From assembly GCA_963575745.1 (NCBI GenBank), contig CAUYUJ010000159.1:1-64000 (forward strand): a stretch of DNA of 64,000 nucleotides, given 5' to 3'. The notes below the pieces were generated by a model. The model made no database searches, was not told the DNA's origin, and worked only from the letters and a program-made list of their open reading frames with translations. The DNA comes from Prorocentrum cordatum (Eukaryota). Shown in pieces: positions 1 to 24,998 of this stretch; the stretch's first letter is position 1; the number at the start of each line of letters is the position of its first letter. Position numbers and translations under genes: made by a program.

Positions 1-3000
1 TACAACGGTCGATGATGTGAAAAACAATATGTTCCAGTTTATAAAAGAAGAGATCACATTCGACTTCTTCGTTGAAACGTCCTGGCAGTGACACGGAAGG
101 CATCACCGTGTTGCCTGGTTTATCCCAGGCTCGACATTCTCTACACGAGTCACAAATGCCTTTGATCAAACTCAAACGGGTTTCACCCAGACCAACCTTG
201 GTTAGAATCATCCGCATTTTTGGCTCCTTGGCATGAAACCATCTCAGGTGGAGTTTGCGGAGTTCTCGCTGCACTACAGCTGGGTCGAAGCTGCGCAGGT
301 TTTGGAGGCTGAGCTGAACGCCGAAGCGAGTCCAATCAGGGAGCCTTGGCCTTGGCCGTGGCTCTGCTTGAGGCTGCGGCGGTGGTGGAGGATCTCCTCC
401 CTCCATGCGTCCGCGCCTTGCTGCAACTTGTGGCAGTCTACGGTGATCGTCAGAGCTGCCAGCGCCACTGTTGCCACCAATAGCCCCGTCGGCTCTGGTG
501 ATGTCATGGCTGCTGGCGCCTGCGGTTGGATCGCCCTCACCAGGCCGTGGCGGCCTAGGCGCACGTATGCGCGCTCTCGCGGCCGGCGCCGCTTTTGCGG
601 CTGGCGCCGCTTCTGCGGCTGGAGCCGCTTCCGCGGCTGGCGCCGCAGGAGCGGCTTGTCCCGCCGGACGCGGCTGGCCAAAGTTATCCGGCAGTTTCCA
701 TTTTTCGGCAAATCTGCATTGGCCAGATATCTTGGTGTGGTGAGGATTGCTCTTCTGATATTCCTTCTTACAGCTTGGACAGTCCCAGTAATACGGTTCA
801 ACATCATACCACCGACACATCTTCGGGTCCCTACTGTGCTTTGGTGATTGCTTGTAGTTGTTGTCCACACAGCCAGGGCACCCAAGACCGCCAGGTGGTG
901 GTCGACAGATTTCTCCGTTTGGGTGTCTCCGAATTGTTGGGTCGTCCAAGTCGTAGCCAGCACTGTTTGTTACGAACGCATAGCTGCGTTCACGATTCGC
1001 GAATGGATCGCGACCGTAAGCAAACAGGTCTTTGGCGATTTGCACCGCATCAACGATCAATGACTGCATTCTGTAGGTATACTGTGCCGCCCTTGCTAGT
1101 TCTTTATTACAAGCATTGGCGTGCACATGATTACCTGGACAACGCTTGCCTCTGAAAGGTGCCAACAACTCTTCTTTGTTTGCCATCATCTGTGTTGGCT
1201 TGCGGATGTATTGTCCAAATGAATCTTTGAGACCAGTCGTGCACTGATCAATGATTGTTTGGCAAGTGACCTTGCGTTGTGCCAGTTCTTTCCATGGCTG
1301 GATCTCATCCACCCACGTGCCCATTGGTTGTTCCCTGAGGAAGAAACGTCTTAGGTCGTCTTGTAGTAGAGCGACTGTTCCACAGAACGTGATATGAGGC
1401 AGGTCCTCTTTGTGGTGTTTAAGCCACGTATCATGATTGACTTGTGCGTTGAAGTAAGAAGGGAGTCCAGTAGTTCTGCAGCTTGGCTGCAGAATCGTGA
1501 TCTTGACAAAGCAAGTCTTGAGGTAGTGGAGGACTGCTCTCTGTACTTCCGAGTTTCCAAGGTCAACCATAGATATCTTGTCAAGGTTCCCGCCTGACGA
1601 GAGTCCCCTCTTGAAGGCTAATATGGATATACCACCCTTGCCCCCACATACTTCAAGCATGTCCACTTGATTGTTTCTGCCGTAGCATAATGACTGGACC
1701 ATCGAGAAGACATCAGCATGTGAGTCAGCGGGTTGCCCCGCCGGTAACATCATGAAAATGTCCTCTGATTCGCTGTCCGAGTCCGAGTCGTCAAGAGGAA
1801 CGTCGTTGAAATATGTGGAGCAGTCAAGCCCTTTGAGGTCCTCTCCACAGTCGTCGTTACCGTCTTCCACTTTCTTCGGAACTTTCTTCGGTTTGATGCC
1901 GGCTTCTTTGTCAGCTTTCTGCTTTTCTTTCTGTTTTATCCTGGCATCAGTGGGCAACGCGGTTTCCGCGGAGAGATCCGCTGCGGAGGAATCCGCTGTA
2001 AAGTCAGGAAATGGCGGAATTTCAGGAAGGTTGTTGGTGGGTCGCGTTTGGCAACGCTCAATCGAAGGGGGAGGAGATCGATCGTCATCGACGATCGTCA
2101 CACGCTTTGGGCGTGGCCTTCGCGACTCACCATTGCCATGAAGAACTGGAGCCGGAGGCTCCCAGTATAGCCGAGTACTGATGTTTGTAACCCCATCAGG
2201 TAATGGAGCTACATAATTGTACCCAGTTGGCTGATCCTGGATCCTAATGTCTTGAACGATCTTGTTCGTGTCCAGGTCGGTCGTGACCCTACGAACCACA
2301 TGGTCCCATTGAGGGCCCTTCTGTGGACATTGAACGTAGTGTCTGACCTTTTTGTCAACGCGTGTACACACACTGAGGTGTACCGCACTCCGCTCATTCC
2401 TGAACATGTTGGCTTTATCGAGTTGATCAAGGAAGCGTGCAATAATAATAGCCAAAGTTTTATACCGAAACTCGGCACGTTGCTGATCTTGGCCATACCA
2501 ATCCAAATCATGCTCCTTGTGTGATCCACAAGTACATTTCCATAAGTGTATCGGTATATGAGGACAAGATGTAGCAACTTGTATATAAGAACCACTGGGA
2601 TATTTACTGGATCGGTCAAACTTAATGCCGAAATGACAGAGTCTGATTCGTATAACGCTTAGCTTCAAATCTTCAATAACATCTTTGATCGGACCCTGTT
2701 TCCAGAAATACCCGGGTGGCCCCAGGATAACTATCTGCATTCTCAGAGCACGCGCTTTGATCAGGAGATTTTGTATACGTTGATAATGTGGTCCCGCCCT
2801 CTTTCCTGGAGTACGAACGTACCAATCAGAGGTTGTGGCCACCCACAACATATTGTAGTCTCCTGCCAACAAATTTCCCAAATACTGTGTTCCAGTTGAA
2901 GTCATTACCTCATTATGGGTAATCCGGTCGCATATATATCCACGGGTTCGGAGTTCAGCGCAAGCTGTACGAATATCTTCGATGACGAGGCATTTTGAAT

Positions 3001-3106
3001 GGTATTTTTCTTCTCGGGCCTCAGCGCGGCCAACGTATGTCGCGAGGAGGCCGGTATTCGGCTTCTCTTCGCAAGCGAGCGCCGCCGGCGCGCCCGCCTG
3101 CCCCCG
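1..3106 (-). CDS. pol continuation (not in ORF track, open to window edge): degenerate DNMT-like domain, C5 DNA methyltransferase-like domain (~1050-1670), two CxxC-H-C fingers (~710-883), integrase N-terminus (1-265)
   Basis: Manual translation, in frame after the TGA at 3107. DNMT: MLEVCGGKGGIS / LQPSC / REQP / DQC..G....RKPT / CPGNHVH / AAQY. Integrase: LHLRWFH...CREC...FNEEVECDLFFY...FHIIDRC. Confidence 0.85.
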
Positions 3107-4377
3107 TCAGAGGGGCATGCTGTTAGCGGATGACTCCGCAGGCGTCACTGGTGCGGCTGCGCTCACGATCTCCACGCGGGTTGGCCCCGCAAGGTCCGTC
3201 GAACCTCCGCCCGTGCAGCTTGGTGGTGGTGGCGGTGTCGCGGGTGGCCCCGCTTGGTTCACAGGCGACCAATTATTCACCGCCTCCTGGACTGCCCAGA
3301 AAATCTTAGACTTCAGGGCATCCTTCATGTGTGGCCAGGTCCCTTCAGGACACTGTTGGCCTTTCCACCAGCTGTCGAGCGTCCTGTCTACGATCGCACG
3401 GGTCGTGTCCTTCAGGAGCTGCTTGTCGAGATATGGCTCGACAATGAACGTATCAGTCGTAACGGTCATAGACTGTCCCATCGCGGGTTGCCCCGCTGTT
3501 ACCCCAGCGGGTGACCCCGCACCTACACCGGCGGGTGGCCCCGCATTGACGGAGTCCTCGTCGTTCTCCGTCTCGGTGTAGACGTCATGACTACTGCGGA
3601 TTGTGAAGGTGTTGGTGACCGTCTGGCTTTTAGCCCCGTCATACAATCCGCAGGGAATGGCTAGGTGTCCTGAGGGGGTCTTCTTTGCCCTCAGGACCTT
3701 GGCGCCCTTCCCCAGCTTAAGAGTATACTCCCCGCTGGGGAAGATAACCTTCTGGAAGCCTGGCTTTAGCACGATAATTGTGTCACGTGCTTCCATGGCA
3801 CTCAGGCCCCAGATGGCTGGGAGGTTTGCACCTGAGCCCTCTGCGATGTTGGAAGCATACTCCTCGATGCGGGGGCTTGCCTCATTGGCGTATTGCACCC
3901 CTATCTTGAAGTTGCCCATTTTCCGACAGATCGCAGCACCCTCACCTACACCATTGATGTAGAGGGTTTTGCTCAGTGTGCATATGGCCGGTCTGTGATT
4001 GTACCTGGCCATAACCTCCTGAAAGGTTCGTGCTGTATTAGCTCCGATGATGTTCACGTTGGAGCCAATGTCTAGCATGAACGATATGCAGGGCATTCCG
4101 TCTTCGTCGGGGAAGAATGTCCCTGTCCGCGCCGCCAGAGCCATCGTACCATGGCCATCAGGATGGTGCGTAATCTGTGAACCGAGCGTGCCTTTCAGTA
4201 GGCGTTGTTCCAGCACCCACTGGCTCATTGTTAGCTCGGTGCACCATATTTGCTCATATTGGCGGCGCTCCTCCACGGTGATAGGTTCCTGTTCAAGGAC
4301 CCAGTAATTCGCGGAGAGTGTGGAGGTCCACTCACCTCCTGGCGGAAGCGTATCCGTGATGTCACGTGTGTAAAGAT
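3107..4377 (-). CDS. Retropepsin-like aspartic protease segment
   Basis: FMLDIGSNVNIIG (~4061-4078), flap-like INGVGEG, and LPAIWGL. Confidence 0.75.
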
Positions 4378-7300
4378 GAATAAAAAAAAAATAACAAAAA
4401 TAAGAACAAACAAAATGTAAGAAAATAAAAAAAAAATAAAAAAATAAAAAAAAAAAAAAAAAACAAAAAAAAAAAAAAAAAATACAAAACATAAAAAAAA
4501 ATAAAAGAAAAAAACAATAAATAAAACAATAAAAATATAAGATAAAAAAAAAAACAAAATAAAAAAGTAAAAAAAGCATGCCCTTCCGTGTTGATCATGA
4601 AGGTATTGTGGAATTGTGCTGCTTCAGCGCTTTCCGCACTGGCCCGGCTCCTAGCACTCACCGGGCTCTCTGCACGTGAGGTTCTGGATACACCTCCGCT
4701 CCTGCCGCTCCGCCTGATATTGGCCTCCATTGCTCTCAGGAATCCTGGATTCGGAGGCCCCGTTGCGGGTGACCCCGCTTTGGCGGCGGGAGCCGCTTCG
4801 GCGGGTGGCCCCGCTGCTGGGGGCCCCTGTGCTCGAAGCGTAGGCAGGATTGGCATCTGGATGCCTTGCTCTGGCGCTGGCCATGGGTGGGTCTGTGCAG
4901 CTGGGGCACGTGCGGATGGCTCCGCCGAGGCGGCTCGAGCCTCTAGTGCCTCCACTGCTTCCCGCAGCCGGCGCAGTTCCCGAGCATCCACCACATACCT
5001 TTCCTGCTGGCGCGCCTGTTCTGACTCAGCGTCGCGCTGTCCAGCATACGGAAAGTGTGCTGCGATTATGCCCGGCCCACGACATACAGCGCAAGGTGCC
5101 TCGTTTGGCGTACCTGGCCGCTGATTGCGGACGTGCTGCTGTGCAACACGATCCCAGCATATATCGTGGAAGAAATGTCCACATGCCAGTCTCCACACCG
5201 TGGTGCCCATCTCGTAGGGGTCCATACAGATCGGGCACTGTGTGAAATTGTAATCTGAAATGACTGGCGGGGGCACGTCGGGGCGAGTCCGAGCCTGACG
5301 CTCGAAAGTAGTTTCGCCCTCCCGATATGGCGTCGGTGGTGGCAGTCTGTCTATCTGTTCAGCGGGTGGCCCCGCACCTGCGGGTGTCCCCGCTTGGTTC
5401 TCACGCTCGATCCTTCTCTGGATAGCGCGCTGTTGGCGCAGCCTAGCGTTGTCCCGAACCTGCTGCCTAGATGCCAGTATCGCTTGCTGCGTGTTGTGCA
5501 CGTCGCGAATGTAGTCTGGCATGCTGCCCAGAGCGGCTGGCACCGCGAGACCAGCTGGCTGAACTACGGTCTCGGGGTCCGTCGGCGTGGGCATATAGGC
5601 GTAGTGCGGCAAAGACTGCGCATCGACTGCTCGTGTAAACTGCAAACGATACATCTCATTGGCCAGATTTCGAGTGTATTCGTTCGCAGGTGGCCCCGCA
5701 ATCATAGGAGTGTTATTTACTTGCGCGTAGTACTCCGGGTACATCGGCGCATCCATGGCCGGTGCCTCTGCTGGTCCATGATTGTCCCATCCATATATTG
5801 GGTGTGATGCTATTCCTGGAATAAACACCTGCCGATATGGATTCGTGGGATCAGCATTCGGAGCATCATCAGAAGTCCAGCTCCACAGAGGCCGAAAGTC
5901 GCCATGATTCGTAACATCTATGTTGCGGTTCCGCAACAGGCTGGGCACTCTATCAGCTTGTTGATGTAAAAAGGTAGCTTGTGCCCTCAAAGTGGCCGCC
6001 CTCCGTTCATAGTCTGCGCCCTGCTGACTGTCAGCGGGTGGCCCCGCGTGTGCGGATGACTCCGCAGGCGTTCGCTCGGCGGGTGACCCCGCAGCCACTC
6101 CTCCTTCACTACCCCTCGGAGTGCCGAAGGGAGTGGTCGCCCGGAGTGCCGCTGCGAGCGTCGGATTCCCGCGAATCGCCTGGAGTCGTTGCCACAAACT
6201 GTTTTCGCTCGTTTCGGGCGGCGGAGTCCGATACGGCGAGCCACCATCTGATCCGCTCATGGGGACAAACCTCGCGCCTCCAGCTTGCTGCGGAGGGCGT
6301 TGTGGTTGTGTCCCTAGGATGCCGGGTGGCCCCGCAGGAGGGCGCAGGTTCCTCTGCTGTGCATCTTGGATACCTGCGTGAACCGCCCACGGGTCAGCTC
6401 TATATAGCTGATCAGTCAGCCCAGAGACGTCAGCTGATGTCAAATGGCTGTTGAGAGCGTGGACCCAAGACTGCTGGTCCTGCCGCCACGGGGATGCTAC
6501 CGTCGCCACCGGTGTGACTACTTGTTGCCACGACCCGTCCGAGGTGTCTACTGCGGGTGTCCCCGCACCTGCGGGTGGCCCCGCACCTGCGGGTGGCCCC
6601 GCTTCAGGCATGGCCTCGTCCTCCTGGGCATTCATCATGAGGACTGTCTGTGTCTCAAACGGTCGTGGAGCAATATCTTGCTCGGTCATGACCAAGTTGA
6701 ATGGACGACCGTCCGTCTTAGTCCAGCCCTTGAGGTACATAGCATGATCTTCCATTACACCTACAGTTTTATCACACATTTTGAGTGGCAGGTAGTCATC
6801 AGTGCGAATCCTGTCCGCGGGTTGGCCCCGCTTCCGCGTCTTGTCATAGAACAGCGGATTGCTCCAGGCTTCGCCGACCCGATACTTCGCAATGCTCACG
6901 ATCTGCATGATGTGATCGGGCGGTATACGTCCGTCGTGGCCCCTTGTCATGACTATGTCATTTGCTGATCTCCATAGAGAGAAGCCACTGGACAGCATCT
7001 TGTTGATGCTGCAGAATATGAGCACCTCCGAGTCAGGACGGATGCCCGATTGAATCCTCGGGTCGCCCGGGAGGTAGGGGCAGCCATGCACAAATTGGCG
7101 CCCCCCCTTCCTCTTCGGGTTGTCCTGTGCGAGGCATGACAGGCCATTAGCAAGAATGTCCTTGACATACTCCCACTGCGCCCCGTGGATGAAATATACT
7201 GGGTCGTCTGGTTCTTTCATCCATGTTGTGATCGGCTTGAACAACGACTCGGGACAGTGGACGCCTGGACTGCTGTGGCCATTCGTAGCTCTGATGAAGT

Positions 7301-8336
7301 ACTGTGGCCTGCGGTTCGTTGGTTGAAACCTTTTCGGCAGCAGCAGGCTATCATCAACGCGCTTCATCTGGAGCCTGCCCTTCTGCATGCCGTGATGGTC
7401 AATTATCTCACAGCAGTTTAGCAGCACCCAGTACACGAATGACGAGTGGGGCCTGCCCTTGATCAGCACTTCGTGCATGTCACGATAGTGTTTATACTGA
7501 TCATTTTCCTGCCAGTTTGCCAGCAGATCGTCAATGACAACCCAGCCGTCGTACGGATCGAAAGTGCTGACCTTCTCGAAGTATCGGTTGTGTTTGTCCT
7601 TATAATATGGACTGTGGCGTAGAGCCGTCGAAAACCAGATCGATATCTTGGTCATCTGCTCCTTACTCGGCAGGGTCGGATCAGCGCCGTTCTGTTGCAT
7701 GACCTTCAGGAGCGATTCATTATGCTGCGCAACACGTAGTGGCGGCCTGTCTCGCAGCATGTTTCCCACCTTCTGTTGTTCGCGCTCCCAGTCGTTGTGA
7801 CACTTGAAATTACGACGAACCGGACAATTAATGACTTCATATCGGTCCGTGTCGTCTGGAGTGACTCGTGGGTTGATGGGCTGCCTCGGGCCTCTGTCTA
7901 CAATGCCTTGCCAATACAACTTGCATTCCAAAGGAATGACCCTCAGAACAGACATTATTGGCTGCCCGCTTGCGGGTGACCCCGCTAATGCAGCCGGCGG
8001 CGCCTTGACGGGTGGCCCCGCTAATGCAGCTGGCGCCGCTTTAATGGGTGGCCCTGCAGAACCTGCGGCTGACGAGGCAGCTCCTGCAGATGACTCCGCG
8101 CCAGGGTTCTGGCGACCTTTGTCAGCAGCTGCATCATCAGTCAGTTTCTGTTGGTCGCCAAACTCTTTGAGGACTCTGAAGCGTTCTTCTCTGGAGAGAG
8201 TGCCTTCCGCGGGTGTCCCCGCAGTTACGGCTGGCGCCGCTTTAGCGGGTGGCCCCGCAGGAAAACAATAAGAATGCGGAAAAAAAGATAGAACTACAAA
8301 AAAAAAAATTAAAAAAAAATAAAAAAAGAAAATCAA
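4362..8336 (-). CDS. Polyprotein segment with Tpt1/KptA-like RNA 2'-phosphotransferase (~6900-7650) and RING-H2 finger (~5080-5237)
   Basis: Tpt1 motifs in order: STALRH, DGWV, KGRLQ, IRATNGHS, IHGA...GL, GRQFVH, SGIR, SANDIVMTRGHDGRIPP. RING-H2: CPIC...CGHFFHDICW...CAVC. Both ORF ends fall in A-rich patches. Confidence 0.85.
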   Translation of the reverse strand: MIFFFYFFLIFFFVVLSFFPHSYCFPAGPPAKAAPAVTAGTPAEGTLSREERFRVLKEFGDQQKLTDDAAADKGRQNPGAESSAGAASSAAGSAGPPIKAAPAALAGPPVKAPPAALAGSPASGQPIMSVLRVIPLECKLYWQGIVDRGPRQPINPRVTPDDTDRYEVINCPVRRNFKCHNDWEREQQKVGNMLRDRPPLRVAQHNESLLKVMQQNGADPTLPSKEQMTKISIWFSTALRHSPYYKDKHNRYFEKVSTFDPYDGWVVIDDLLANWQENDQYKHYRDMHEVLIKGRPHSSFVYWVLLNCCEIIDHHGMQKGRLQMKRVDDSLLLPKRFQPTNRRPQYFIRATNGHSSPGVHCPESLFKPITTWMKEPDDPVYFIHGAQWEYVKDILANGLSCLAQDNPKRKGGRQFVHGCPYLPGDPRIQSGIRPDSEVLIFCSINKMLSSGFSLWRSANDIVMTRGHDGRIPPDHIMQIVSIAKYRVGEAWSNPLFYDKTRKRGQPADRIRTDDYLPLKMCDKTVGVMEDHAMYLKGWTKTDGRPFNLVMTEQDIAPRPFETQTVLMMNAQEDEAMPEAGPPAGAGPPAGAGTPAVDTSDGSWQQVVTPVATVASPWRQDQQSWVHALNSHLTSADVSGLTDQLYRADPWAVHAGIQDAQQRNLRPPAGPPGILGTQPQRPPQQAGGARFVPMSGSDGGSPYRTPPPETSENSLWQRLQAIRGNPTLAAALRATTPFGTPRGSEGGVAAGSPAERTPAESSAHAGPPADSQQGADYERRAATLRAQATFLHQQADRVPSLLRNRNIDVTNHGDFRPLWSWTSDDAPNADPTNPYRQVFIPGIASHPIYGWDNHGPAEAPAMDAPMYPEYYAQVNNTPMIAGPPANEYTRNLANEMYRLQFTRAVDAQSLPHYAYMPTPTDPETVVQPAGLAVPAALGSMPDYIRDVHNTQQAILASRQQVRDNARLRQQRAIQRRIERENQAGTPAGAGPPAEQIDRLPPPTPYREGETTFERQARTRPDVPPPVISDYNFTQCPICMDPYEMGTTVWRLACGHFFHDICWDRVAQQHVRNQRPGTPNEAPCAVCRGPGIIAAHFPYAGQRDAESEQARQQERYVVDARELRRLREAVEALEARAASAEPSARAPAAQTHPWPAPEQGIQMPILPTLRAQGPPAAGPPAEAAPAAKAGSPATGPPNPGFLRAMEANIRRSGRSGGVSRTSRAESPVSARSRASAESAEAAQFHNTFMINTEGHAFFTFLFCFFFYLIFLLFYLLFFSFIFFYVLYFFFFFLFFFFFFIFLFFFYFLTFCLFLFLLFFFYSSLHT

Positions 8337-9645
8337 CTAAAACAGAGCCCTTGTCCTCCTTAGCCTTCGCCCGCTTCTGCCCCCGCTCCGACCTCACCCA
8401 GCTTCGGCTTCGGCTGTCGCTTTCATATCCAGTGCCGAACCTGGTCGAGGTGCAAGGCTGGTGTGCAGTGTTGAGTCCATCACCTCGGAACGCTGCCCTT
8501 AGCTTGTCGCGAGCGTCGTCCTTGGACATCGCCCTTGTGGTCTACTGGAGCATCGATCGATGGCTCCACAAAGACCTCTTCCCTCTCCTGTCAGCATAGA
8601 CCAGGAGGATCTGCCACTCAGGGTCGTCCATCTTGGCATCGCTCTGACCTTCGGCCCGTACCCCCTGGCGTGTCTTCGGGGCTCTTTTTGGACGAAACAA
8701 CAAGAAATAAAAAAAAAAATAAATAAGCAAAAACAAAAAAGGAGCCTTTTTGCAGGAGTCGGTGACGACGAGGAGTCGGCTCTAGGTCTTGGAGGTGGTC
8801 TGCTGCTCTTGCCTGGTCGTGGACCAGGAGGGTCTCTTGGAGGGCCTTCTGGCTGGCCATGGTCATGGATGACCTGCCTCATCTGGTCGATGTCGGCAAA
8901 CACCGCGCGAATGGCCACTTTATTTTTTTTTTTTTTTGTTGGGTTTTGGGGGCCATTCTCATGGCCGGTAAGACACCCTTCGTGGATGAGCCACTTCTGC
9001 GGCCGAAGAGCTGAAAAAAAAAAAAAAGTAACCAGCAAAAAAAACAGAGCAAAAAAATAAAACAAAGCAAAAAAGCAAACAAGGGCAAAAGCAAAAAAAA
9101 AGGCAAAAAAAAAACAAAGCTCTTCCGTCAGGGAATGGATTCTCTGAACCGTCTTCCGCCGCCCACTCTTCTTTTAGCTCAGTGCGGTCAGTGCCGGCGG
9201 CGGACCCGGCAGCAGAGGCAACGTCTATCCACTCGTCCGCAGATCCAGCGGCTGGTGCTGCTTCTGCGGGTGACCCCGCTTCCTTGCTGGATTCTGCGGG
9301 TGACCCCGCTTCCTTACTGGATTCTGCGGGTGACCCCGCTTCCTTACTGGATTCTGCGGGTGACCCCGCTTCCTTATGGAATCGGCGGTTCCATTCCTTG
9401 AGGCGGTGGTCATTGGGAAGCTCTGCCCAATTTTCCTTGACGGTGTTGGCCACCTCTTCGGTCATAGGGACGGACGCGATCGGCCTCTGTGATGCGCTTT
9501 CCTCCTCCAGGAACCTCTTTGTTCGGATCATGGACGTTACCCGCGTCGTCTCCATGAGACCAATTCCACGGGGTTTCTCCATGGTGAGGGCTCCTGGAGG
9601 GGCGGTCCATCGGACACCTGCGCATGTGGCCTTTGAAGGGCTCAC
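8242..9645 (-). pseudogene. Disrupted low-complexity linker of element A polyprotein
   Basis: Frame changes near 9450, in-frame TAG at 8542-8544, A/T-rich patches, and a 30-nt tandem repeat (KEAGSPAESS) at 9260-9375. Confidence 0.55.
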
Positions 9646-12232
9646 ACTGACATACTTGCTTTCTGTACGTTTTGCGGTCAGTGATGATCTCCTGCTTCTT
9701 TGCCCTTTTGTCCCAGGCCTCTGGCGTCTTGGTCTTGCCGCCCTTGGTACGGATTATCGCGCCAGTCTCGTCCCTTTTGGCACAGTATTCCTTAGAATAC
9801 CAGTGCCGAAGAGTATCCATAGAGTAGCCGGGGTACCATTGGATGTACCAATCCGGCACCTGTTGAGCAGATACTCCAACGGAGTGCTCAGTGCTGTATG
9901 GATAGCCCGATTCATCATGCGTAGGGCGTCTAGGAGCTGAGCGGCTCCTTCCTCGGGCTGGCCCCGCTGACGCACTACCACGTGTCACTGGCCTTTGATC
10001 GTCATGCTCTGAGTCTCGGGGAGGCGACGGTCGCCTGTCCCTCTTGGCGTACCGCATGTCCTCCGAGTCCTCTGAGCTGTCCTGGACCATGAACTCGTTT
10101 TGATACGGGCTTCTGAAGTATCCGATGTCATTTAACTGCTCCATCGAGAGGTCGTTAATGTTCATTTGATCGCAACCTTGCATGAATACATCCATAGACC
10201 AAGCGGGTGGCCCCGCGGTTGTGTCTAGCATCTCTTCGGCGGGTGACCCCGCTAGAGCTTGGAGTGCTGTAAGCATCTGAGATGCTGACATGTTCGAATC
10301 CAAGTATGGACGTAGACGGGCAACTCCTGGGTGCGACAGCAGTTCGCTCATCGTCATCTGCTGCTGTGCTGGCGCACTCAAGAGTCGGATTGCTTCTGAA
10401 ACCTGCTCGTGGAGCATGTCGTTATAATCTTCTTCGGATTCTTCGGAGTCGGAATACGCGGGATGGCCCCGCATTTCGTCATCGGCGTCTCCCATCTCCG
10501 AGCCAGCCCACGACGGATTTTGCAGCAACGGCATGCCAATCACTTGTGGGGCCAGCGCGGCGGTGAGTTCTTCCTCTGTTGCCGGGACAGTCTCGGCTTC
10601 GGAGACCTCGTCACCGGCGGGTGGCCCCGCTGGAAGACCAAACCAAGCATTGTACGCAATCTCATCGACCTCGTCCCAACCGTGGAACTCGTCGAAGAGG
10701 GTCACTGCGTAGTCTTCCAGGGCCACGGTTGCTTCAGCATAGCGGGCCATCACGTAATACGTGGAGGAGCCCGCAGCGGGAGCCGCTTCTGGATTGACGT
10801 AAAACTCGTAGTCAATGTAATCTATGTCATCCATAAAAGAATTTTGAGCCAAATGTACGGATCCCTTTCCTTTCCCTTTCGGGCATTGATCGCGCAAGTG
10901 CTCTGTGCTGCCGCATGTATGACACTTCATAGTATTACCAGAAGCGTCCCTAGGGTTGCCCCTCCGCCCCTTTCCCTTACCGGAGGTCCGCCTGTGACCC
11001 TGACCTTTGCCTCCGATAAGAACTTCTTCAAAAGCCATATCAGTTAAGGACGTGAGGAAAGCAGTAATACCCCTACCATGCATACGGCGTCTGCGACCCC
11101 CTTTACCACGACCCTTTCCAAATTGTTTGAAATGTCGGCGTACTGCACGTCTCACTTTCCTGACTGGTTTCTTCATAAAGCGCCTCCAACGGCGTTTTGA
11201 TTTGCGATAAGCCATAAAGGCGGCTTCCGCCCTTTGCTGTTCAGAAAGGTGAGTGTCGTCCGCTGGATAGTCATTACCAGCAGAGACTATTCCATTGTGC
11301 TCATCGTCAGATGAAGTATCTGTGTCAGTGCCAGATTCAAACGGTGAGGGTGGCTGAAACCATTGAGCGGATGACTCCGCTTGGCCCCAGAGGGTTGTGC
11401 CCGAGGGCGGGCTTGCAGTGTAGGCGGCGCCTGGCGAGTAGTTCGACCAGGCGTTTGCCTCAGCTGCCTCTGCCGATACCTGGCCGGTCTGCCCTAGAAG
11501 GGCAGTGGCCTCGTTGGGCATATCGGCTGGGTCAGCCCAGGGATTTGGCTCGCCAGGACCAGCGGGTGACCCCGCAGTCGTGGCATAGACACCTGCATGT
11601 GAGTGGTGCCCTGTGAAGATACCCGCTATGTTGCCAGGAGAGCGCTCGGCGACATGTCCGTAGTTCCTCATCCTGGTCATCAGCCTGTCATAGTCTGCTT
11701 GTGTTCGGGGCATCTGATGATTGAAGGGCTCAAGCAGGTGTTGGGCTCGTGACGCGCCAACGCCTAACGCTCTGAAGAGAATCAGCGTTAGGATCTGAAA
11801 GTTGGGGATGACAAAGCCAACAGAGTTAGCCACGTCACGGGCCATCTCGAATCGAGCTAATACCGAGTCGATTCGCTCGCCCCTTTCGACGCGGAAGTCG
11901 ATAAGGGCCGTGCCAGAGTTGAGCTGGCGCTCATCTTCCAGATTTTCAAATTTGGTGCTCAGTAAGTACAGTATGTAGGTTACTGCATCCGTTGGCTGTC
12001 CATTGACAGTTACACCATAATTGATGATCTGGGAGGGGACCTGCATGGCGATACGACGAGCAAGACCTTGAAGGCCTCGTTGTAGTGCTGCAGCTTGTTG
12101 TGGTGGTGTCATATTGCCGCACGTTACGTTTAACCATGCATGTACTTCGCGAACATATTCGCGAAAAGGCGTAGTACCGGCAGGGTCCCATGAAGGGCCA
12201 GTAGTACGCGTGTCGTCCATCCCCTGCCGCAT
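9410..12232 (-). CDS. gag: Gag-like protein with CCHC zinc knuckle (ORF track 9410..12808; real start probably downstream of the LTR/PBS)
   Basis: CHTCGSTEHLRDQC (CX2CX4HX4C) at ~10883-10925, preceded by basic GKGKG-rich segments. Helical capsid-like N-terminus (FREYVREVHAW...). Confidence 0.8.
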   Translation of the reverse strand: MRQGMDDTRTTGPSWDPAGTTPFREYVREVHAWLNVTCGNMTPPQQAAALQRGLQGLARRIAMQVPSQIINYGVTVNGQPTDAVTYILYLLSTKFENLEDERQLNSGTALIDFRVERGERIDSVLARFEMARDVANSVGFVIPNFQILTLILFRALGVGASRAQHLLEPFNHQMPRTQADYDRLMTRMRNYGHVAERSPGNIAGIFTGHHSHAGVYATTAGSPAGPGEPNPWADPADMPNEATALLGQTGQVSAEAAEANAWSNYSPGAAYTASPPSGTTLWGQAESSAQWFQPPSPFESGTDTDTSSDDEHNGIVSAGNDYPADDTHLSEQQRAEAAFMAYRKSKRRWRRFMKKPVRKVRRAVRRHFKQFGKGRGKGGRRRRMHGRGITAFLTSLTDMAFEEVLIGGKGQGHRRTSGKGKGRRGNPRDASGNTMKCHTCGSTEHLRDQCPKGKGKGSVHLAQNSFMDDIDYIDYEFYVNPEAAPAAGSSTYYVMARYAEATVALEDYAVTLFDEFHGWDEVDEIAYNAWFGLPAGPPAGDEVSEAETVPATEEELTAALAPQVIGMPLLQNPSWAGSEMGDADDEMRGHPAYSDSEESEEDYNDMLHEQVSEAIRLLSAPAQQQMTMSELLSHPGVARLRPYLDSNMSASQMLTALQALAGSPAEEMLDTTAGPPAWSMDVFMQGCDQMNINDLSMEQLNDIGYFRSPYQNEFMVQDSSEDSEDMRYAKRDRRPSPPRDSEHDDQRPVTRGSASAGPARGRSRSAPRRPTHDESGYPYSTEHSVGVSAQQVPDWYIQWYPGYSMDTLRHWYSKEYCAKRDETGAIIRTKGGKTKTPEAWDKRAKKQEIITDRKTYRKQVCQCEPFKGHMRRCPMDRPSRSPHHGETPWNWSHGDDAGNVHDPNKEVPGGGKRITEADRVRPYDRRGGQHRQGKLGRASQ

Positions 12233-12580
12233 GTATCCCACAGCACATCCCATTATTACCCACAGAATGCCGAAGATTGTTATCTTGATCCAATGCATGT
12301 GCATTTCGGCTTCGGTGATTGGTTTGGGCTGTGGTTTGTCAGGCTCTGGCGTGGTAGCCGTGAGGCGCCTGACCGGCACGGGATGCAGGTGGCCCCGCTG
12401 CGAGTAGCCCCGCAGGGTGACCACGTTCTCGATCGAGTTGCCGATTGGCATCTGGTGGAAGTCGGGAGTGAAGTAGCGCAGTGCCGTAGGAGAGAGCGTC
12501 TCGAGTTCGCGGGTTGCCCCGCTAGCTCGATCGCGGACTGGCTCCGCTCCTCGCAGAGCCGACGCAACATGGTATTCCAC

Positions 12581-12598
12581 CGTGGTAGTAGTCCACCA
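12581..12598 (-). promoter_or_regulatory. Putative primer-binding site (TGGTGGAC..., compatible with a tRNA ending ...UCCACCA such as tRNA-Ala)
   Basis: TGG-starting motif 3 nt after the putative LTR-terminal CA. Confidence 0.4.
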
Positions 12599-12601
12599 AG
12601 T

Positions 12602-12912
12602 TGTGCCGTGGATTACAGGAATCAGAGCGAGAGCCAGCCACACGAGAGTGTAGCCAGCTCCGCTACCAAGTCGAAAACAAGCTGGTAAGCTTAGGTATGT
12701 GTTACGCATTAGGCGTTGCCATATCCCAGGCTTTGGCTCATAGCGCATGAGCAAGAGAGCGAGACGAAGCATGGGATCTGGAGTAAAGAGTAGGATGGGC
12801 ATCGTCAATGGAAAAGGATGTTTTCCGATCTCGGATGCAAGTAGTGCGCCTCAGTGAGGCACAGTCACATATCTGGCCGGGCCCGGCTTGAGCCAGGCAC
12901 GGCAGCGGTACA
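12602..12912 (-). repeat. Putative 5' LTR of element A
   Basis: On the minus strand it begins TGTACCG and ends CGGCACA (6/7 inverted termini), followed after 3 nt by TGG. The second LTR is not in the window, so this is unconfirmed. Confidence 0.5.
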
Positions 12913-13899
12913 TGCTCGATTTATATCTCGCCTTTAACCTTCTCCGTTTAAAGTGCGTGCACCACCATTACTTTTGCAGATCCCTGGGCGTCCATGGCGT
13001 TGGGGCCACGAAGGCTGCCAAGACAATCGAGGAAGGCTATCAAAATCGCCAAGACAGCATGAATTGGCTCCAAGACGGCCCAAAATGACCCCATCATGGC
13101 CCACAATTGCCTCAAGATGGCCCAAATTAGGCCCCCAAACGGCTCAGGATGATCCAAGAGGAACCTCAAGAGAGCCCGACGAGGTAAAAAACAATGGTCT
13201 TCTTTTGGTGTTTCATTGCTTGTGGGAATTATCACGCTTCGGTCGTCAGCTCAAGACGGTCCAGGAGGCCATCACGATTGCCTCAACGGGGCCCATGAGA
13301 GCTCCAACATGATTTGACAAGCGTCCAAGATGGCCTCAACAGTACCCAAGAGGGCGCATAGACTGATCTGGGGACTCTTCTTTTTCTCCGAGGCCATGAT
13401 TGAAGATCGCCCGAGTGTGCCCTGTGCAATCGCGGACAAGTGAGGAAACAACTCAGCATGCGTCACGAACCCTTGAAAAAACAGTGCAACCAGCGCGGGG
13501 TCGCGAATCTCTGGCCCCTCGAAGTAAGACTTCAGCAAGCACAAGCGCTGAGGGCATCGCGAAGAAGCCGCACACGCACCTTGAACGGTGTGAAACAGAC
13601 TGCCGCTCAACTCCTTGTGCTGCAAGCTAAGCCGAACTGCTTTCACGATCTGGTCTTCCTCTTAAGCAACCCATCAAGTAGCAAGAGGTTTGGTAGCCCT
13701 TCCGACTTGGGACATCATGTTTCGGAATTCCCCTCCCTCCATCCTCCTCCTCCTCCGTAGCCGCGGCATGACCAATCCCTGCAAGGAGGGGTGATGAATC
13801 CAATCACTCCGACGGTAGGACCCCGCACGAGAATCTGTTTAACTTGCCCCTCGCCCTTTTCCTCTTTGACTGGCAGAGGCCCTCCTCTCACCCTCTGCG

Positions 13900-16800
13900 T
13901 CCTCCTCCTCCTCTTCCCCCTCCTCCTCGTCGTCCTCCTCCTCCTCTACCTTCTTGTCCTACTCGTTACATGTCTTATTATCATCCTCCTCCTCTTCCTG
14001 CTGCTCCTCCTCCTTCTCTTGCTCCTCCTCCCTTCTCCTCCTCTTCCTCGGCGTATTAGTTGTATTACTTTTCGTAGTATCTGTTTTTTTCCTCGCCTTT
14101 GTCTTATTATTAGCATCGGTAGTCTGCTCGGTATAAGTATGATACCGGAGAAAAAACCCAATCACGGCTATACGGCTAGGGGGCTATAGGGCTAGAGGGC
14201 TATTGAACTATAGGGCTATAGAGCTATAGGGCTATAGAGTTGTAGGGCTATAGGGTTAGAGGGCTATAGGGCACCCCCGAGCACCCTCGGGCAAGCCCGG
14301 GCACCCGGGCACCCCTGGGTACCCCCCGGGCACCCGGGCGTGCAGCGAAAATCGGCGGCCAACCTCACCCCCGGGCACCCCCGGGCACCCGGGCGTGCAG
14401 CGAAAATCGGGGGCAAACCTATTCGAACCATATGAATCAGCTAGGACCCCTACAGAGGCAAGCTCTGAGTGGGGAATTAGTCGTACTGATAATATTACAA
14501 TTGTTAGTATTATTGGTATTAGCGTGAACATTCGTAGTCATCGTCTTGATTATTAGCATTAACAATAATATCCTTCGTCGCAATATTACTATATCTATCG
14601 TTCACATGTTTTGGATTCGTCTTCATCTGTTCTTCCCATTATTACCCTTATTATCCTTAGTAGTGTTATTAAGATTTGTCTTCTGCATCATCTTACGATG
14701 ATCATGCCTCCCCCGTCTTATTCTTGTTATTCGCCTTCAACGTTTTACTCTTCTTCGCCCTACTATGATTCTTAATGCTATTAGCATTCGTAGTCGTATT
14801 AACCGCCGTGTTCTTCTCAGTGTCGTTCGCATTTGCAGTCGTAGTATTATAACTATTCGCGTTCGACATATGAGTATGAAATCATTATTTCTATGTTTCC
14901 TAGTCGTAGTAGCCTTCATATTCTTCGGAATAGTATCCGTACGCTGTCCAGGATTCTCAGTATTCGTCTGGGTCTTCTCATTACCATGGTGCGTCGTCTT
15001 TTTCATAGTATTACTAGTATTACTACAATTCGCACGCGTACTATTAATACTAATAAGATTGTTCGTCTTCGTCCTTCTCCCCCTCCTCCTCCGCCTCCTC
15101 CGTCTCGTCCGTCTCATCCGTCCCCTCCGCCTCCTCCGCCTCCTCCACCACCTCGGCCTCCACGGCCTCCTCCTCCTCCTCATTGACCTTCTCCTCCACC
15201 TCCCCCATCCTCCTCCTCCTCCTCCTCCATATCCGCCTCTTCCTCCTTCTCCTTCATATCCGCCTTATCCTCCTCCTCCTCCATCTCCTTCTCCTCCTCC
15301 TCCTCCTCCTCCTCCTCCTCTCCTCCTCCTCATCGTCTATCATACTCTCATAATCCTCCTCCACTTCATCCTCAGCCTTCCTGCTCCTATTCAGCCTTTT
15401 TCCTCCTCACTCCTCCTCCTCCTCCTCCTCCTCCACCTCCTCCATCGCCTCCTACTTCTGCCTCCTCCTCCACCTCCTCCTCCTCACTCCTCTCCCTATG
15501 TTCTCCTCCCTACGCCTCCGCCTCCCCCCTGCTCCTCCCGCTCCCCCCGCCCCCGCTTCCTCCTCCCCTCCGCCACCACCTCCTCCTCATCCTCTTCCCT
15601 CCTCCCTCATCCGCTTCCTCCTCTCCTCATCCACCTCTTTCGCTTCTCTTTTTTTTCCACCTAATCCTCCTCCTCCTCCTCCTCCAACTCCTGCTCCTCT
15701 CCCCCATTGCTCCCCCTCCGCTTCCTCCTCCTCGACTCCTCCTCCTCCCTCCTCTTCCTCCTCCTTTCTCCTCCTCCCGCTCTTCCCGTGTCCTCCTCCT
15801 CCTCCTCCGCCCTCTTCCTTTTCCTTTTCCTCCGCCTCCTCCCTCCTCCCCTTCTCCTCCTCCTCCTCCTCCTCCTCCTCCTCCTGCCCCGCCCTCATTC
15901 CCCTCCTCCTTCTCCTCCTCATCATTATTATCCTGCCCTTGATATTAGTATTAAGATTTGTATGTGTATTACGATTCGTAGTGCTATTATTCATCGTATT
16001 ATTATTCGGATTGTTATTATTAGTTTCATTGTTCATCGTATTCCTCTTAGCATTAGTAGTCGTAGAAGTATGAGTTATCTTGTTATTCTTCTTCGTATTA
16101 TGAATCATACTCTTCGTCATCGTATGCTTAGTCTTCTTTTCCGTCTTCTTCTTCCGCATCCTCCACCTCCTCCTGCTCCTCTCCCCACTCCCCCTCCTCC
16201 TCTTCCTCGTCCTCCTCCTCCGCCTGTTCCCCCTCCTCCTCTGATGATCCTCGTTCGTCTTCTTATTCTTCTTACCAGATGTATTACTAGAACAGTATCG
16301 CTAATACAAGTATTTGTTCCTGTATGATTCGTATTCGTGGTATCGACATTGCCATTATGAATATCAATCGGGGTGTCCGTATTATCCTTCATATTGTTAG
16401 TCTAATTCTGCTTCGTACTAGTGTTATTATTCATAAACTGATTATTCTTCTACGTATTAATACTCGTATTCCGCATTCGCCTCCTCCTCCGGTTCCTCCT
16501 CCTCATCCTCATCCTCCTCCTCTTCCGCCTCCTCCTCCTCCTCTTCCTCCTCCTCCTCATCATCCGCCCCCCCCCGGCTCCCCTTCCTCTTCGTTCTCCT
16601 CCTCCCTTCTCTTTTCTCCCCCCTCCTCCCCTCCTCTCCTACTCCTCCTTCCTCCTCCTCCTACCTCCTCCTCCCCTCCTCCTCCTCTTCCCCCAGTTCC
16701 TCCTCCTCCTCCTCCTCCTCCTCGTCCTCCTTCTCCCTCCCCCGTCTCCCACCTCCCTATCATATCCCCCCTCCCTCCCTCCGTCCTCCCCTCCCATCCC

Positions 16801-17372
16801 TCCTCCCTCCCTTCCGCCCCTCCCTCCTGACTCTCCTTCCTCCTCGATCCCTCCCTCCTCCTCCTCTCCTCCTCCTCCTCCTCCTTCCTCCTCCTCCTCC
16901 TCCTCCTCCTCCTCCCCATCATCATCGACCTCCTCCTCCTCCTCCTCCTCCTTCTCATGTTCCTCCTGTTCCTCCGCCACCGCTCTCTCGACCTCCTCCT
17001 CATCCTCCTCATCCTCTTCATGCCCCTCCTCCTCCTCCACCTCCGCCTCCTTTTCCTCCTCCCTCACGTCCTCCCCCTCATCATTATCAGCAACAGCAGT
17101 ATCGTCAGCACCAGCAGCATCAGCATCAGTCTGATCGCCATCGCATTTTTTGTTCATCGCCATCATCAGCATCGCCATCACCATCGTCACCCCCATCACA
17201 ATCATCACCCAGCTCATCACCAGAATCATGACCATCCGCGTCATCAGCATAAGCATCATCAACACACCCGATGCTCCTCGGACTCATCATCATTCTCACC
17301 ACCAGAAACATCAGCATCGTGACCATCACCATCATCACCAGCAGCATCCACAACAACAACATCATCATCATC

Positions 17373-17404
<32 letters not shown>

Positions 17405-18075
17405 CATCGCCACCATTACCACCACGCACAACAGCAAAAACAGCAGTAACACCACAGCCAGCATCAACACCACTGCGAAAACCACCATCATCATCAACGC
17501 CACCATCACCACCACCGTCATCCTCACCATCATCACCATCAACATCACCACCATCATCATAATCATCAACCGGAACATCACCACCACCGCCGTCATCAGC
17601 AGTATCATCACCATCAACAGCAGCATCAGCCTCATCACCAACATGAGCATCATCATCATCACCATCATCATCATTGACGTGAACATCCTCAACATCAACA
17701 ACATCAGCATCATGAAAATCGTTACTAACAGTTTCCTCCGCATCGTCCCCCTCTTCCTCCTCAGTATCATGTTCCTCCTCTTCATCCCCCTCCTCCATCC
17801 CCGACCCCTCCTCCTCCTCATCATCATCATCACCAGCACCACCATCATCATGATTCCTCCTCCTCCCCGTCGTTATCATCATCAGCACCACCTTCAGCAA
17901 CATCATCGTTATATCACCAACAGCATCGTCAGCGGCACCAGCAGCAAGCAACAATATCCTCCTCGTCCTCCTTCTTCCCATCCTCTTTACCTTCTCCATC
18001 ACGTTTATTATCCTTGTTTCCCTCCTCCTCCTCATCGTCCTTGTCCTCCTCCTGATCACGTCCTCCTCCTCAGTT
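13900..18075. repeat. Degenerate (CCT)n / (TAT/CGT)n / (CAT)n microsatellite mosaic, with TAGGGCTA and CCCGGGCA short repeats at ~14170-14410
   Basis: Directly visible low-complexity triplet runs. Confidence 0.9.
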
Positions 18076-18188
18076 TCCCCTTTCTTCAGCTCCATCCCGT
18101 CTGTTTTCCCCATGCACCATTCCTTCCTCCTGGCAGGGGCGCGCGCGCCGACGCCGTTGGGACAACCCCGCAGGCACCGAGCTGGTCT

Positions 18189-20052
<1,864 letters not shown>

Positions 20053-20544
20053 GAGCTAGTCGCGGCCGCGCCCAGGCGGGAGGCAACGCGAACTCCAGCT
20101 CTGCCGCGAGCTGCTCCGCCTCGGCCCTGCACTTCAGCCCTGCCCCTCGCCCTTCTCCACTTCGACTGGCGGAGGCCCTCCTCCTCCTCCTCCTCCTCAC
20201 CTCCTCCTATTACCCTCCCTCTCCTTCCTCCCTCCTCCCTTCCTTTCCTAACACCTCCCTCCCTCCTCCTCCTCCTCCCTCCTCGTCCCTCCGGCTCTCC
20301 TCCCTCCTCCCCCTCTCCTCCTTCTCCTCCTTCCCCTCCTCCCTTCCCTCTCCCTCCTCCTCCTCCTCCTCCTCCTCAGATAGCTCAGGGGAGTGGCCCT
20401 TGAGTGCCTGTGGCAGGTCAGCTAAAGATTCCAGTTCCCAGGGGATGGACGCCCTGTTTTCCGAACGCGAGCGCGAGCGCGAGCGCGCCGAAGCGCAGTC
20501 CCCACTTGTAGAAAACTCCCGCTCGAAACTTGTTCGCGAGTCAT

Positions 20545-21770: not shown

Positions 21771-21924
21771 TGATCATAAGGGATGGTGATAGTGATGACA
21801 AGGGTGGTGCGCGATAGTGTTTACGATGGCGATGCGAATGATGGCCAGCGATCGTGACGGGATCATGACATGATAACGAGTGGGTGGGTGATGAGAAAAT
21901 GTGAGCGGTTGGTAGACTGAGTGG

Positions 21925-22036
21925 ATGCTGATGATGATGATGATGATGATGATGATGACGACATTTAGTGACCCTGAGGGGAAGGAGGTAGTGATGTTGG
22001 TTGTGGCTTTGATGATGATGATGATGGTGGTGATGA

Positions 22037-22070
<34 letters not shown>

Positions 22071-22080
22071 GATGATGATG

Positions 22081-22163
<83 letters not shown>

Positions 22164-22177
22164 GGTGGTGGTGGTGG

Positions 22178-22227
<50 letters not shown>

Positions 22228-22250
22228 GTGACGGTGGTGGTGATGAGGAG
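21925..22250. repeat. (GAT)n/(GGT)n microsatellite
   Basis: Directly visible. Confidence 0.9.
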
Positions 22251-22569
22251 GAAGAGAGGGGGAGGATGAGAAGGACTGCGCGGGGTGTCCAGAGAAAACA
22301 AGAACCTCACTTAGGATGTGAGGAAAAAGAGGCGAGGTGCTCGCGCCGTGGCATAGCTTGAATTGGGAAGCACGGCCTGTCAAATCCAGTCCCGCCCTCT
22401 ATCCATCCGCGCAACTAAACCGAGCACGAGCACCGTGGCTCGCTGGGAATAGCGACGCTTCTGTCGACCGCGCAACGCACGGGCCAACAGTGGTCAAGAA
22501 AGTGAGCCTGACCAAACATTATCCTGGCGAAGGACCCAGTCATATGCAGTTGTGAGTACTGTCGTCTGG

Positions 22570-24899: not shown

Positions 24900-24900
<1 letters not shown>
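24360..24900. repeat. C-rich minisatellite (CCCTGCAGAGCGGACCCCCC) followed by (GTC)n
   Basis: Directly visible repeated CTGCAGAGCGGA core. Confidence 0.85.
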
Positions 24901-24983
<83 letters not shown>

Positions 24984-24998
24984 TCGTCGTCGTCATCG

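Follow-up and report, generated by a model that had tools for sequence, protein, structure and literature searches.

Why does a palindrome of only 14 nucleotides (nt) recur dozens of times along the coding sequence of a retrotransposon, and is it kept for the sake of the protein or for the sake of the nucleic acid? The question is raised by the beginning of a 64,000-nt stretch of Prorocentrum cordatum DNA (GenBank assembly GCA_963575745.1, contig CAUYUJ010000159.1, positions 1 to 64,000 of the forward strand; the whole of this stretch is called the window below), where a decayed copia-type element, read from the minus strand, carries the palindrome between its protein modules. The answer suggested by the sequences, which appears robust, is that the 14-mer is a nucleic-acid unit constrained in the active lineages of such elements and that the protein accommodates it.

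An exact GCGGG-N4-CCCGC is found 27 times in the window, at 26 places within 1728-12522 and at 32230, while dinucleotide shuffles of the window (n = 100) contain 0.29 on average and 2 at most. Perfect hairpins of the 5+4+5 type number 195 in the window, and the GCGGG stem accounts for 27 of these, the next commonest stems for 6. A sequence-only reading of the same DNA had reported about 26 exact copies with four sense-strand loops, and both the copies, at the places listed there, and the loops are confirmed: on the minus (sense) strand the 26 copies have GCCA (10), GTCA (10), GACA (3) and GCAA (3). Polarity is uniform, with GCGGGT..CCCCGC on the plus strand and GCG GGG NNA CCC GC on the minus strand in 26/26 copies, the latter being the strand of the long open reading frames (ORFs), on which the unit translates as Ala-Gly-(Pro/Ser/Thr/Gln)-Pro-Ala. 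The ORFs are not broken by the unit, which is in phase 0 with them in 25 of the 26 exact copies, and the residue after it is encoded by a purine-initial codon in 25/26 (mostly E, G or D). In every copy the loop has G at position 6 and A at position 9; the GNRA tetraloop rule failed, as a purine stands at the third loop position only in the three GCAA copies, and the looser GNNA fits.

Among other loop lengths only N5 is in excess, with three copies in the element at 3176, 6817 and 10458. About ten more copies are decayed, some by a single mismatch (for example 5686, 6322, 8008 and 12385; also 8057 and 8098), so that some 26 intact units are found among the approximately 45-50 that can be recognised between 579 and 12522, mostly in coding linkers. 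Clusters of 2-5 motifs stand between every pair of modules, i.e., the zinc knuckle, Tpt1, RING, protease-like and methyltransferase-like modules and the integrase start. The 51 kb outside the element contain one exact copy, and there is thus no window-wide over-representation of the type seen with HIP1, a cyanobacterial palindrome discussed below. This lone copy (32230-32243, plus strand) reads in frame as AGPPA within an open frame of 2119 amino acids (aa) with 72% GC and is compatible with chance.

The peptide by itself goes some way towards the palindrome. Ala-Gly-x-Pro-Ala alone fixes four of the five stem pairs and leaves free only the third positions of the first Ala and the Pro codons, so that chance alone should make palindromes of about one quarter of AG.PA peptides. 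Open frames of 150 aa or more outside the element have four distinct AG.PA sites, one of them palindromic, near the 1 in 4 expected. Inside the element this explanation fails. When synonymous codons are shuffled with the protein kept (n = 2000), the exact motif appears 1.8 times on average and never more than 7 times versus the 26 copies observed, and the general form GCGGN-N4-N'CCGC appears 2.9 times on average and at most 10 times versus 37. Codon preference in the element is slight: GCG makes up 0.29 of the Ala codons, GGG 0.23 of the Gly codons and CCC 0.23 of the Pro codons. When all three minus frames of 1-14000 are translated, they contain 29 AG.PA peptides, of which 26 are exact palindromes using GCG and CCC, two use GCG and CCT and one is unrelated; one pair out of 16 combinations is thus used in 26/29. 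Third codon positions 3, 6, 9 and 12 are invariant in all 26 copies, and position 15 is mixed (A10/C5/G4/T7). Codon bias of Ala/Gly/Pro linkers is rejected as the source of the motif count, and we give next to no credence to chance, such bias or an assembly artefact as an explanation, the motif being present also in independent public records (L001, L020, L069 and L077, introduced below). A rare-codon pause was dropped as well, codon use in the window element being flat.

The stem itself varies in an informative way. When single-pair variants are counted, with four stem pairs held at the consensus and one left free, pair 5 is A-T in six, C-G in five, T-G in one and G-G in one case, and pairs 1, 3 and 4 together give G-T four times and G-G twice; A-C is found nowhere. 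Of these 19 variants, which are not independent events because the AAPAA tandem and the three-site AESSA form are copies of each other, 11 are compensatory, 5 are sense-strand wobbles and 3 are mismatches. The covariant stems noticed earlier are indeed present, GCGGA-GTCA-TCCGC at 3126, 6052 and 11367 and GCGGC-N4-GCCGC at 579, 597, 615, 633 and 4783, as are the two copies with the G..A loop on the plus strand (1968 GAGA, 1983 GGAA), and the peptides vary as stated (AGPPA, AGSPA, AGTPA, AGQPA, AESSA, AAPAA). In peptides of the form A?x?A, residues 2 and 4 are G-P in 27, G-S in none, E-S in 5, E-P in 1, D-S in 2 and A-A in 12 cases. That G goes with P, E or D with S and A with A follows from the covariation of base pair 5, which explains a pattern without an apparent protein reason.

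The energies predicted for the hairpin are -9.3 kcal/mol as RNA and -5.6 kcal/mol as DNA, and in 134-nt contexts of the 26 sites the stem is predicted to form with a mean probability of 0.61 on the sense strand, compared with 0.38 on the antisense strand. A self-duplex of the unit is predicted at -20.4 kcal/mol versus -18.6 kcal/mol for two separate hairpins, so that, in prediction, two copies could pair into a duplex as dimerisation would require.

The unit also occurs in other copia families. Metagenome contigs were scanned for two copies of the motif within 34 nt, which gave 87 stretches, mostly unrelated; 17 of the 87, picked by motif count, were examined, and only three (L077, L069 and L020) were informative. 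L077 and L069 encode, on their minus strands, gag-protease-integrase-reverse transcriptase polyproteins that are 51-57% identical to each other, have Symbiodinium proteins as their named relatives and show no similarity by BLAST to the ORFs of the window. Their sense strands carry GCGGGTAGCCCCGC (AGSPA) and GCGGGTGG(C/T)CCCGC (AGGPA). Reverse-complementing the AGPPA unit of the window gives precisely the GGC form, so that the unit is inverted in these elements while still in phase 0; two copies of a variant in L077 read R-V-E-P. The AG.PA peptides use GCG...CCC in 5/5 cases in L077 and in 5/5 in L069, although in these elements GCG makes up only 16-17% of Ala and CCC 12-15% of Pro codons, and although synonymous sites between the two are saturated, with the same codon at 123 of 364 conserved four-fold residues (34%). 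At one and the same spot of the protease-integrase linker, both have AGSPA followed by AGSTA (GCGGGTAGCACCGC, with a G.A closing pair). In L020 the end of a copia pol ORF is followed by five exact copies and one of the AGSTA type, and since these stand in three frames they are non-coding. Orientation is uniform within each element (26/26, 12/12, 10/10, 6/6). At the protein level, A[GD].[PT]A is found 1-7 times per protein in 22 copia proteins of the Symbiodiniaceae clade where 0.07-0.35 would be expected; 18 copia proteins of more distant relationship have it once at most. Judged by these sequences, the motif unit is lineage-restricted and not a general copia feature. The constraint at the nucleic-acid level that the sequence-only reading had proposed is thus upheld: codon shuffles fail to reproduce the motif, third positions are fixed, pair 5 covaries, and copies exist in other frames and in non-coding sequence.

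By blastn none of the 87 metagenome stretches resembled the element itself and the only match, L001, came from genome contigs; a protein scan of the metagenome contigs for relatives of the element found none, and a motif-pair scan of viral contigs gave 0. Among the stretches examined, L072, L087 and L002 are tandem arrays of overlapping GCGGGTTT(T/C)CCCGC-type units with a 12-nt period, unrelated to the element, and several others look bacterial by their ORFs, as judged by eye.

L001, a contig of 3354 nt, is a second genomic copy, 93.5% identical over window positions 11480-9292 and 82-88% identical over 8686-7864. It is found, together with L092 (G001:C578:1-1060), in a bin filed as Myxococcales; both are copies of the eukaryotic element (92-95% identical), which implies that the bin carries eukaryotic contamination. 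This GC-rich bin of 6.5 Mb has the pattern 27 times, 9 of them on L001 alone, and the reversed control pattern 23 times. The window and L001 agree fully at the motifs 11367, 10617, 10458, 10239, 10203, 8245 and 8209, while they show five differences in the 22-nt spacer that separates 10239 from 10203. Further motifs are disrupted in either the window or L001, a CpG transition being a frequent cause. With one other copy compared, insertions and deletions are whole 27-30-nt repeat units and never a clean 14-15 nt: the 30-nt repeat KEAGSPAESS at 9266-9385 has four units in the window and three in L001, one of them with CCCTC. As far as the two copies allow, the window copy seems to have evolved neutrally from a master in which all of the approximately 45-50 units were present.

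The element that hosts the motif is of giant size (Table 1). The window copy is dead, with a stop at 3106, frame changes and T-rich tracts not present in the second copy. The closest named matches are Prorocentrum cordatum proteins listed as unnamed products, which share pieces with it at 79% identity. The ORF at 4362-8336 (minus strand) encodes a Tpt1/KptA RNA 2'-phosphotransferase (Pfam, E = 8e-16) and a RING finger; Tpt1/KptA, an RNA-repair or ADP-ribosylating enzyme, is an uncommon passenger of a retrotransposon. The ORF at 9410-12850 gives a zf-CCHC match (E = 0.002) that lies below the Pfam cut-off and marks a putative Gag zinc knuckle, and a protease-like segment was assigned by eye only, with no Pfam match. 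At 665-1726 (minus strand) there is a conserved module of 354 aa with motif clusters on both flanks, after which comes a Cys/His-rich segment that is likewise conserved. At E <= 0.001 the module has 941 homologues, many of them in polyproteins of 1000-3300 aa with RVT_2; in four long homologues that were scanned, RVT_2 was found in all four, RING in one and rve in one, the last at E = 0.00059, below the Pfam cut-off. The module had no Pfam match in the window protein and 12 homologues and no sequence match in the PDB, and its predicted model has a borderline resemblance to C5 DNA methyltransferases (the class of DNMT1, DNMT3 and M.HhaI). The last residues in the window resemble, by eye and in comparison with the homologues of 665-1726, the HHCC start of an integrase. 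The RVT_2 homologues and this integrase-like end point to a large copia-type element with its integrase core and reverse transcriptase beyond the window start; no pair of long terminal repeats (LTRs) is visible because one end of the element is outside the window.

Table 1. The element, its open reading frames and its motif sites in the window
Feature	Positions	Strand	Description
Host element	1..12900	-	decayed copia-type copy, ~13 kb, running off the window start
ORFs	9410-12850, 8959-9753, 4362-8336, 3107-4594, 2-3106	-	
Upstream cluster	12385..12522	-	12509 exact, loop GCAA; 12400 (GCGGGGCTACTCGC) and 12385 (CCC>CCT), one mismatch each
Frames of upstream cluster	12509 vs 12400/12385	-	two different frames, neither that of the long ORF; 12400 and 12385 share one
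Motif sites	11367..11575	-	11562 AGSPA, exact; 11367 AESSA (GCGGAGTCATCCGC, pair 5 A-T); both identical in L001
Motif sites	10203..10630	-	exact: 10617 AGPPA, 10239 AGSPA, 10203 AGPPA
5-nt-loop variant	10458-10472	-	GCGGGGCCATCCCGC, read M-R-G-H-P-A
Tandem repeat	9266..9369	-	four exact copies (9356, 9326, 9296, 9266) in 30-nt repeat KEAGSPAESS
Linker before Tpt1 module	7972..8258	-	exact at 8245, 8209, 7972
Decayed or variant copies before Tpt1		-	8227 (GCCGT), ~8098 (AESSA type, CCG>CTG), ~8057 (3 changes), 8008 (CCCGT)
Linker after Tpt1 module	6553..6831	-	6589, 6571, 6553 exact, 18-nt spacing (AGPPAGAGPPAGAGTPA); 6817 5-nt-loop variant GCGGGGCCAACCCGC
Motif sites	6034..6335	-	6079 AGSPA, 6052 AESSA, 6034 AGPPA; 6322 one-mismatch copy
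Motif sites before RING	5362..5699	-	5380 AGTPA and 5362 AGPPA exact, directly before RING; 5686 AGPPA with CCT (G.U in sense RNA)
Linker after RING	4765..4925	-	4912 AEPSA (pair 5 A-T), 4801 AGPPA, 4783 AAPAA (pair 5 C-G), 4765 AGSPA
Motif sites	3483..3544	-	3531 AGPPA, 3507 AGSPA, 3483 AGQPA, 24-nt spacing
Motif sites	3126..3253	-	3240 AGPPA; 3176 5-nt-loop variant (A-G-P-T-R); 3126 AESSA
Motif sites	1728..1996	-	1983 ADSSA, 1968 ADLSA (pair 5 A-T; G..A loop on + strand)
Single site	1728	-	AGQPA, exact, directly before methyltransferase-like module
Tandem repeat	579..664	-	18-nt (E/K)AAPAA = GCGGC-N4-GCCGC at 633, 615, 597, 579; 651 AGQAA (G-G at pair 5)
Place of the 579..664 cluster		-	between methyltransferase-like module and integrase-like N-terminus

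Low-complexity tracts interrupt the coding sequence at 4360-4590, 8262-8345, 8690-8745, 8920-8960 and 9015-9112; on the sense strand they are mostly T-rich, that at 8920-8960 being A-rich. L001 lacks the tracts at 8262-9112 and has a single uninterrupted ORF there; it does not extend to the tract at 4360-4590. Their interpretation as introns was rejected, as the junctions have no AG acceptor, and insertion or expansion by slippage fits better. Prorocentrum cordatum gene models P0001-P0003 join 'HWYSK' to 'VMERFGMDPTLP' and skip about 2 kb (window ~9790 to ~7700), which may mean that the element also exists in a shorter form or that the skipped part was predicted as an intron; no motif coincides with the junction. 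Elsewhere in the window, 14000-31000 and 44000-58000 consist mostly of simple sequence (CCT-type and similar) whose repeat period is a multiple of 3; the repeat families there have hundreds of copies and the GC skew is strong. Three further ideas about the motif were discarded. As a polypurine tract, it has, by eye, too short a purine run in the window family; for an origin from a tRNA or a spliced leader, the resemblance would be one of only 6 nt; and a feature of the whole superfamily is not in keeping with the 0-3 such peptides carried by each of 24 long homologues of the 665-1726 module.

What the unit does is a matter on which we lean, tentatively and at somewhat less than even chances, towards a hairpin that acts in cis, in many copies, on the genomic RNA or cDNA and serves dimerisation or packaging, with strand transfer as a consequence. 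An active copia-type lineage would keep many copies (about 45-50 in the ancestor) of a 14-mer made of a 5-bp GC stem and a 4-nt loop, placed where it is tolerated, i.e., in disordered linkers between modules and in untranslated ends, and coding copies would nearly always stand in the phase that gives a harmless Ala-Gly-x-Pro-Ala, which is read in either orientation because the unit is a palindrome. The unit would act as a hairpin on a single-stranded form, the genomic RNA and possibly also the minus-strand cDNA. The mechanism that we prefer would be the conversion of hairpins into duplexes between two genomes packaged together, binding of the Gag zinc knuckle at many sites, or both, and pausing of the reverse transcriptase with strand transfer at the hairpins would be a likely consequence. 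RNA as the acting form is favoured by the wobble bias, by G..A loop ends that do not vary among the 26 exact copies, by an orientation that never changes within an element and by pairing that is predicted to be higher on the sense strand. Duplex DNA is favoured by the conservation at pairs 1-4 of the sequence and not of pairing alone, by the presence of two CpGs, by the opposite orientation in the Symbiodiniaceae-type elements and by the methyltransferase-like module.

Several observations weigh against the hairpin. The wobble bias is small (five G-T or T-G versus no A-C; binomial p ~0.03, one-sided) and confounded by coding. Pair 3 is the same G-C in 26/26 stems, with no GCC/CCG, GCA/CCT or GCT/CCA, and this uniformity points to sequence recognition or common descent and not to structure alone. 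In L077 and L069 a G.A closing pair is present in 7 of 14 and 3 of 11 copies, respectively, and these two elements and L020, having been found through a pair of motifs, have two copies each by ascertainment. The unit of L077 and L069 is inverted relative to the coding strand, so that the sense loops are TAGC, TGGC or TGGT, mostly T..C instead of the G..A seen here; the GNNA loop described in the sequence-only reading stands for this element and does not extend to the Symbiodiniaceae-type copia elements. With sense loops that depend on the family, a common loop-dependent RNA function is unlikely. Between the window and L001, mismatches fall in 8 of 194 motif columns and 25 of 352 flanking columns (p = 0.19), which is no significant advantage for the motif. 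As to whether synonymous changes freely break the stems in other copies, single dead copies do decay freely, as these two show, whereas conservation is seen between deep lineages. Phase 0 in nearly all exact copies and the location at all domain boundaries, finally, show that the protein also constrains the sites.

Some of these points would be expected if the unit acted as double-stranded DNA, i.e., if GCGG(N)-N4-(N')CCGC were a palindromic, CpG-bearing site for a dimeric DNA-binding protein or a cytosine methyltransferase, be it the DNA methyltransferase (DNMT)-like module of the element or an enzyme of the host. Such a function would be independent of orientation, and the stem is present in both orientations across families; the sequence at pairs 1-4, and not the pairing alone, is conserved; and each arm has one CpG, the CpG transition being the commonest form of decay. 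We consider this unlikely, though worth keeping in view, because the orientation is uniform within each element, the G..A loop ends, fixed in all 26 copies, would be needless for the spacer of a dimer site, the methyltransferase fold match is borderline and without a Pfam match, and L077 and L069 carry the motif while no methyltransferase-like module was noticed in their translations, which were looked at by eye and without a library scan. To a similar degree improbable is a selfish or neutral by-product, a functionless unit spread by replication slippage, template switching or templated insertion that survives where it is harmless. This would account for the recurrence of GCGGAGTCATCCGC at the dispersed sites 3126, 6052 and 11367 and, in decayed form, near 8098, for the tandem arrays with periods of 18, 24 and 30 nt, for the different numbers of units in the window and L001 (4 vs 3) and the 27-nt duplication in L001 that carries a variant, for copies in several frames and in non-coding sequence, for the uniform orientation within an element and for the lack of extra motif conservation between the window and L001. 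It does not account for the persistence of the consensus and its codons in L077, L069 and L020 despite saturation (34% codon identity), for the homologous linker position shared by L077 and L069 or for the absence of a clean 14-15-nt presence/absence difference between the window and L001, and we know of no mechanism that would seed a 14-mer at new sites.

The domain boundaries invite an explanation at the level of the protein, in which AG[x][P/T]A would be a polyprotein processing site or a required boundary linker whose codons reflect the recent copying of a cassette. The same peptide is found at every inter-domain boundary of the window element and at the protease-integrase and integrase-reverse transcriptase boundaries of L077 and L069, A[GD].[PT]A is enriched in the 22 Symbiodiniaceae-clade proteins and not in the 18 distant ones, and the phase and the following residue (purine-initial codon in 25/26, mostly E, G or D) are nearly constant. 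On balance this is rather unlikely: the invariant rare codons across saturated lineages, the covariation of residues 2 and 4 that mirrors a base pair and the non-coding and out-of-frame copies would all be left unexplained, and tandem copies 4-7 residues apart would be unneeded for cleavage.

For a hairpin on the genomic RNA or cDNA, the closest parallel is SL1 of Ty1, a hairpin of the palindromic arms PAL1 and PAL2 that opens to form a duplex between two genomic RNAs, on which RNA dimerisation and mobility depend (PMC6844567). Both elements are of the copia type and both have short self-complementary arms with a loop of 3-4 nt and the possibility of a duplex, here a predicted one. Ty1 has one hairpin in its 5' untranslated region, in contrast to the approximately 50 in-frame linker copies with a GC-only stem here. 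Viral packaging signals, HIP1, the Rickettsia elements and REP sequences are more distant analogues. The Prorocentrum unit resembles the dispersed packaging signals in that many stem-loops with a shared motif stand along the element, the binding of a capsid or Gag being hypothetical here. Such signals of single-stranded RNA viruses are numerous stem-loops in coding sequence, each binding coat protein; unlike the present unit they are degenerate, have varied stems and are not tied to codon phase or linkers. The dimerisation initiation sites of retroviruses such as HIV-1 offer a further analogy. HIP1 of cyanobacteria, a perfect palindrome of 8 bp found genome-wide, is likewise short, GC-rich, far over expectation in coding sequence and kept at the nucleotide level, whereas the unit described here is restricted to the element within the window, is looped and is found in linkers only. 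The palindromic elements of Rickettsia, which are about 100-150 bp long and appear as insertions relative to orthologues, and bacterial repetitive extragenic palindromic (REP) sequences are palindromic repeats that stand in frame where the protein tolerates them and also in non-coding sequence; unlike the Rickettsia elements, the unit has 14 nt and uniform orientation and shows no clean insertion polymorphism between the window and L001. With GNRA hairpins it shares a tetraloop closed by G-C, with G first and A last in 26/26, and it differs from them in having mostly GCCA, GTCA and GACA loops, and TAGC, TGGC or TGGT in related copia families.

A search of Rfam returned no family, its single row having E = 0.96, and six forms of the 14-mer were met in the searched literature only in an unrelated plant primer. 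A paper on Symbiodinium copia elements makes no mention of a palindrome, hairpin, linker or stem-loop, and the accessible portion of a paper on dinoflagellate DNMT-retrotransposons none of a palindrome, hairpin or linker. A preprint on an adenine methyltransferase, covered by its abstract, has no bearing on the 14-mer. The 14-mer is thus undescribed in the searched literature, and cis-acting hairpins and palindromes in coding sequence are already known as a class.

It is also conceivable, though we hold it to be distinctly improbable, that the units are phase-0 recombination joints that let the reverse transcriptase shuffle protein modules in frame. The enzyme would pause at one hairpin and resume at another, on the same or on a co-packaged RNA, and as all modules are bounded by one 14-mer in the same phase and orientation, a template switch would always be in frame, in analogy, at the RNA level, to the shuffling of exons through introns of compatible phase. 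If true, it would account for a polyprotein of approximately 12-15 modules (RING, Tpt1, DNMT-like and others), for the sharing of the unit by unrelated dinoflagellate copia families and for its fixed sequence, phase and orientation.

The known cis signals of LTR retrotransposons come from few model elements and are mostly in leaders, in contrast to the approximately 50 in-frame linker copies found here. The locus is also a clear example of codes that overlap: one base pair imposes a Gly/Pro, Glu-Asp/Ser and Ala/Ala covariation that an analysis of the protein only would misread as a peptide motif. If the unit is a packaging or dimerisation signal, it would be a new way of marking a very long genomic RNA, and if it is a recombination joint, it would provide a mechanism for the capture of domains by retroelements. 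The hairpin is common to distant retroelement families of dinoflagellates, whose huge genomes such elements shape.

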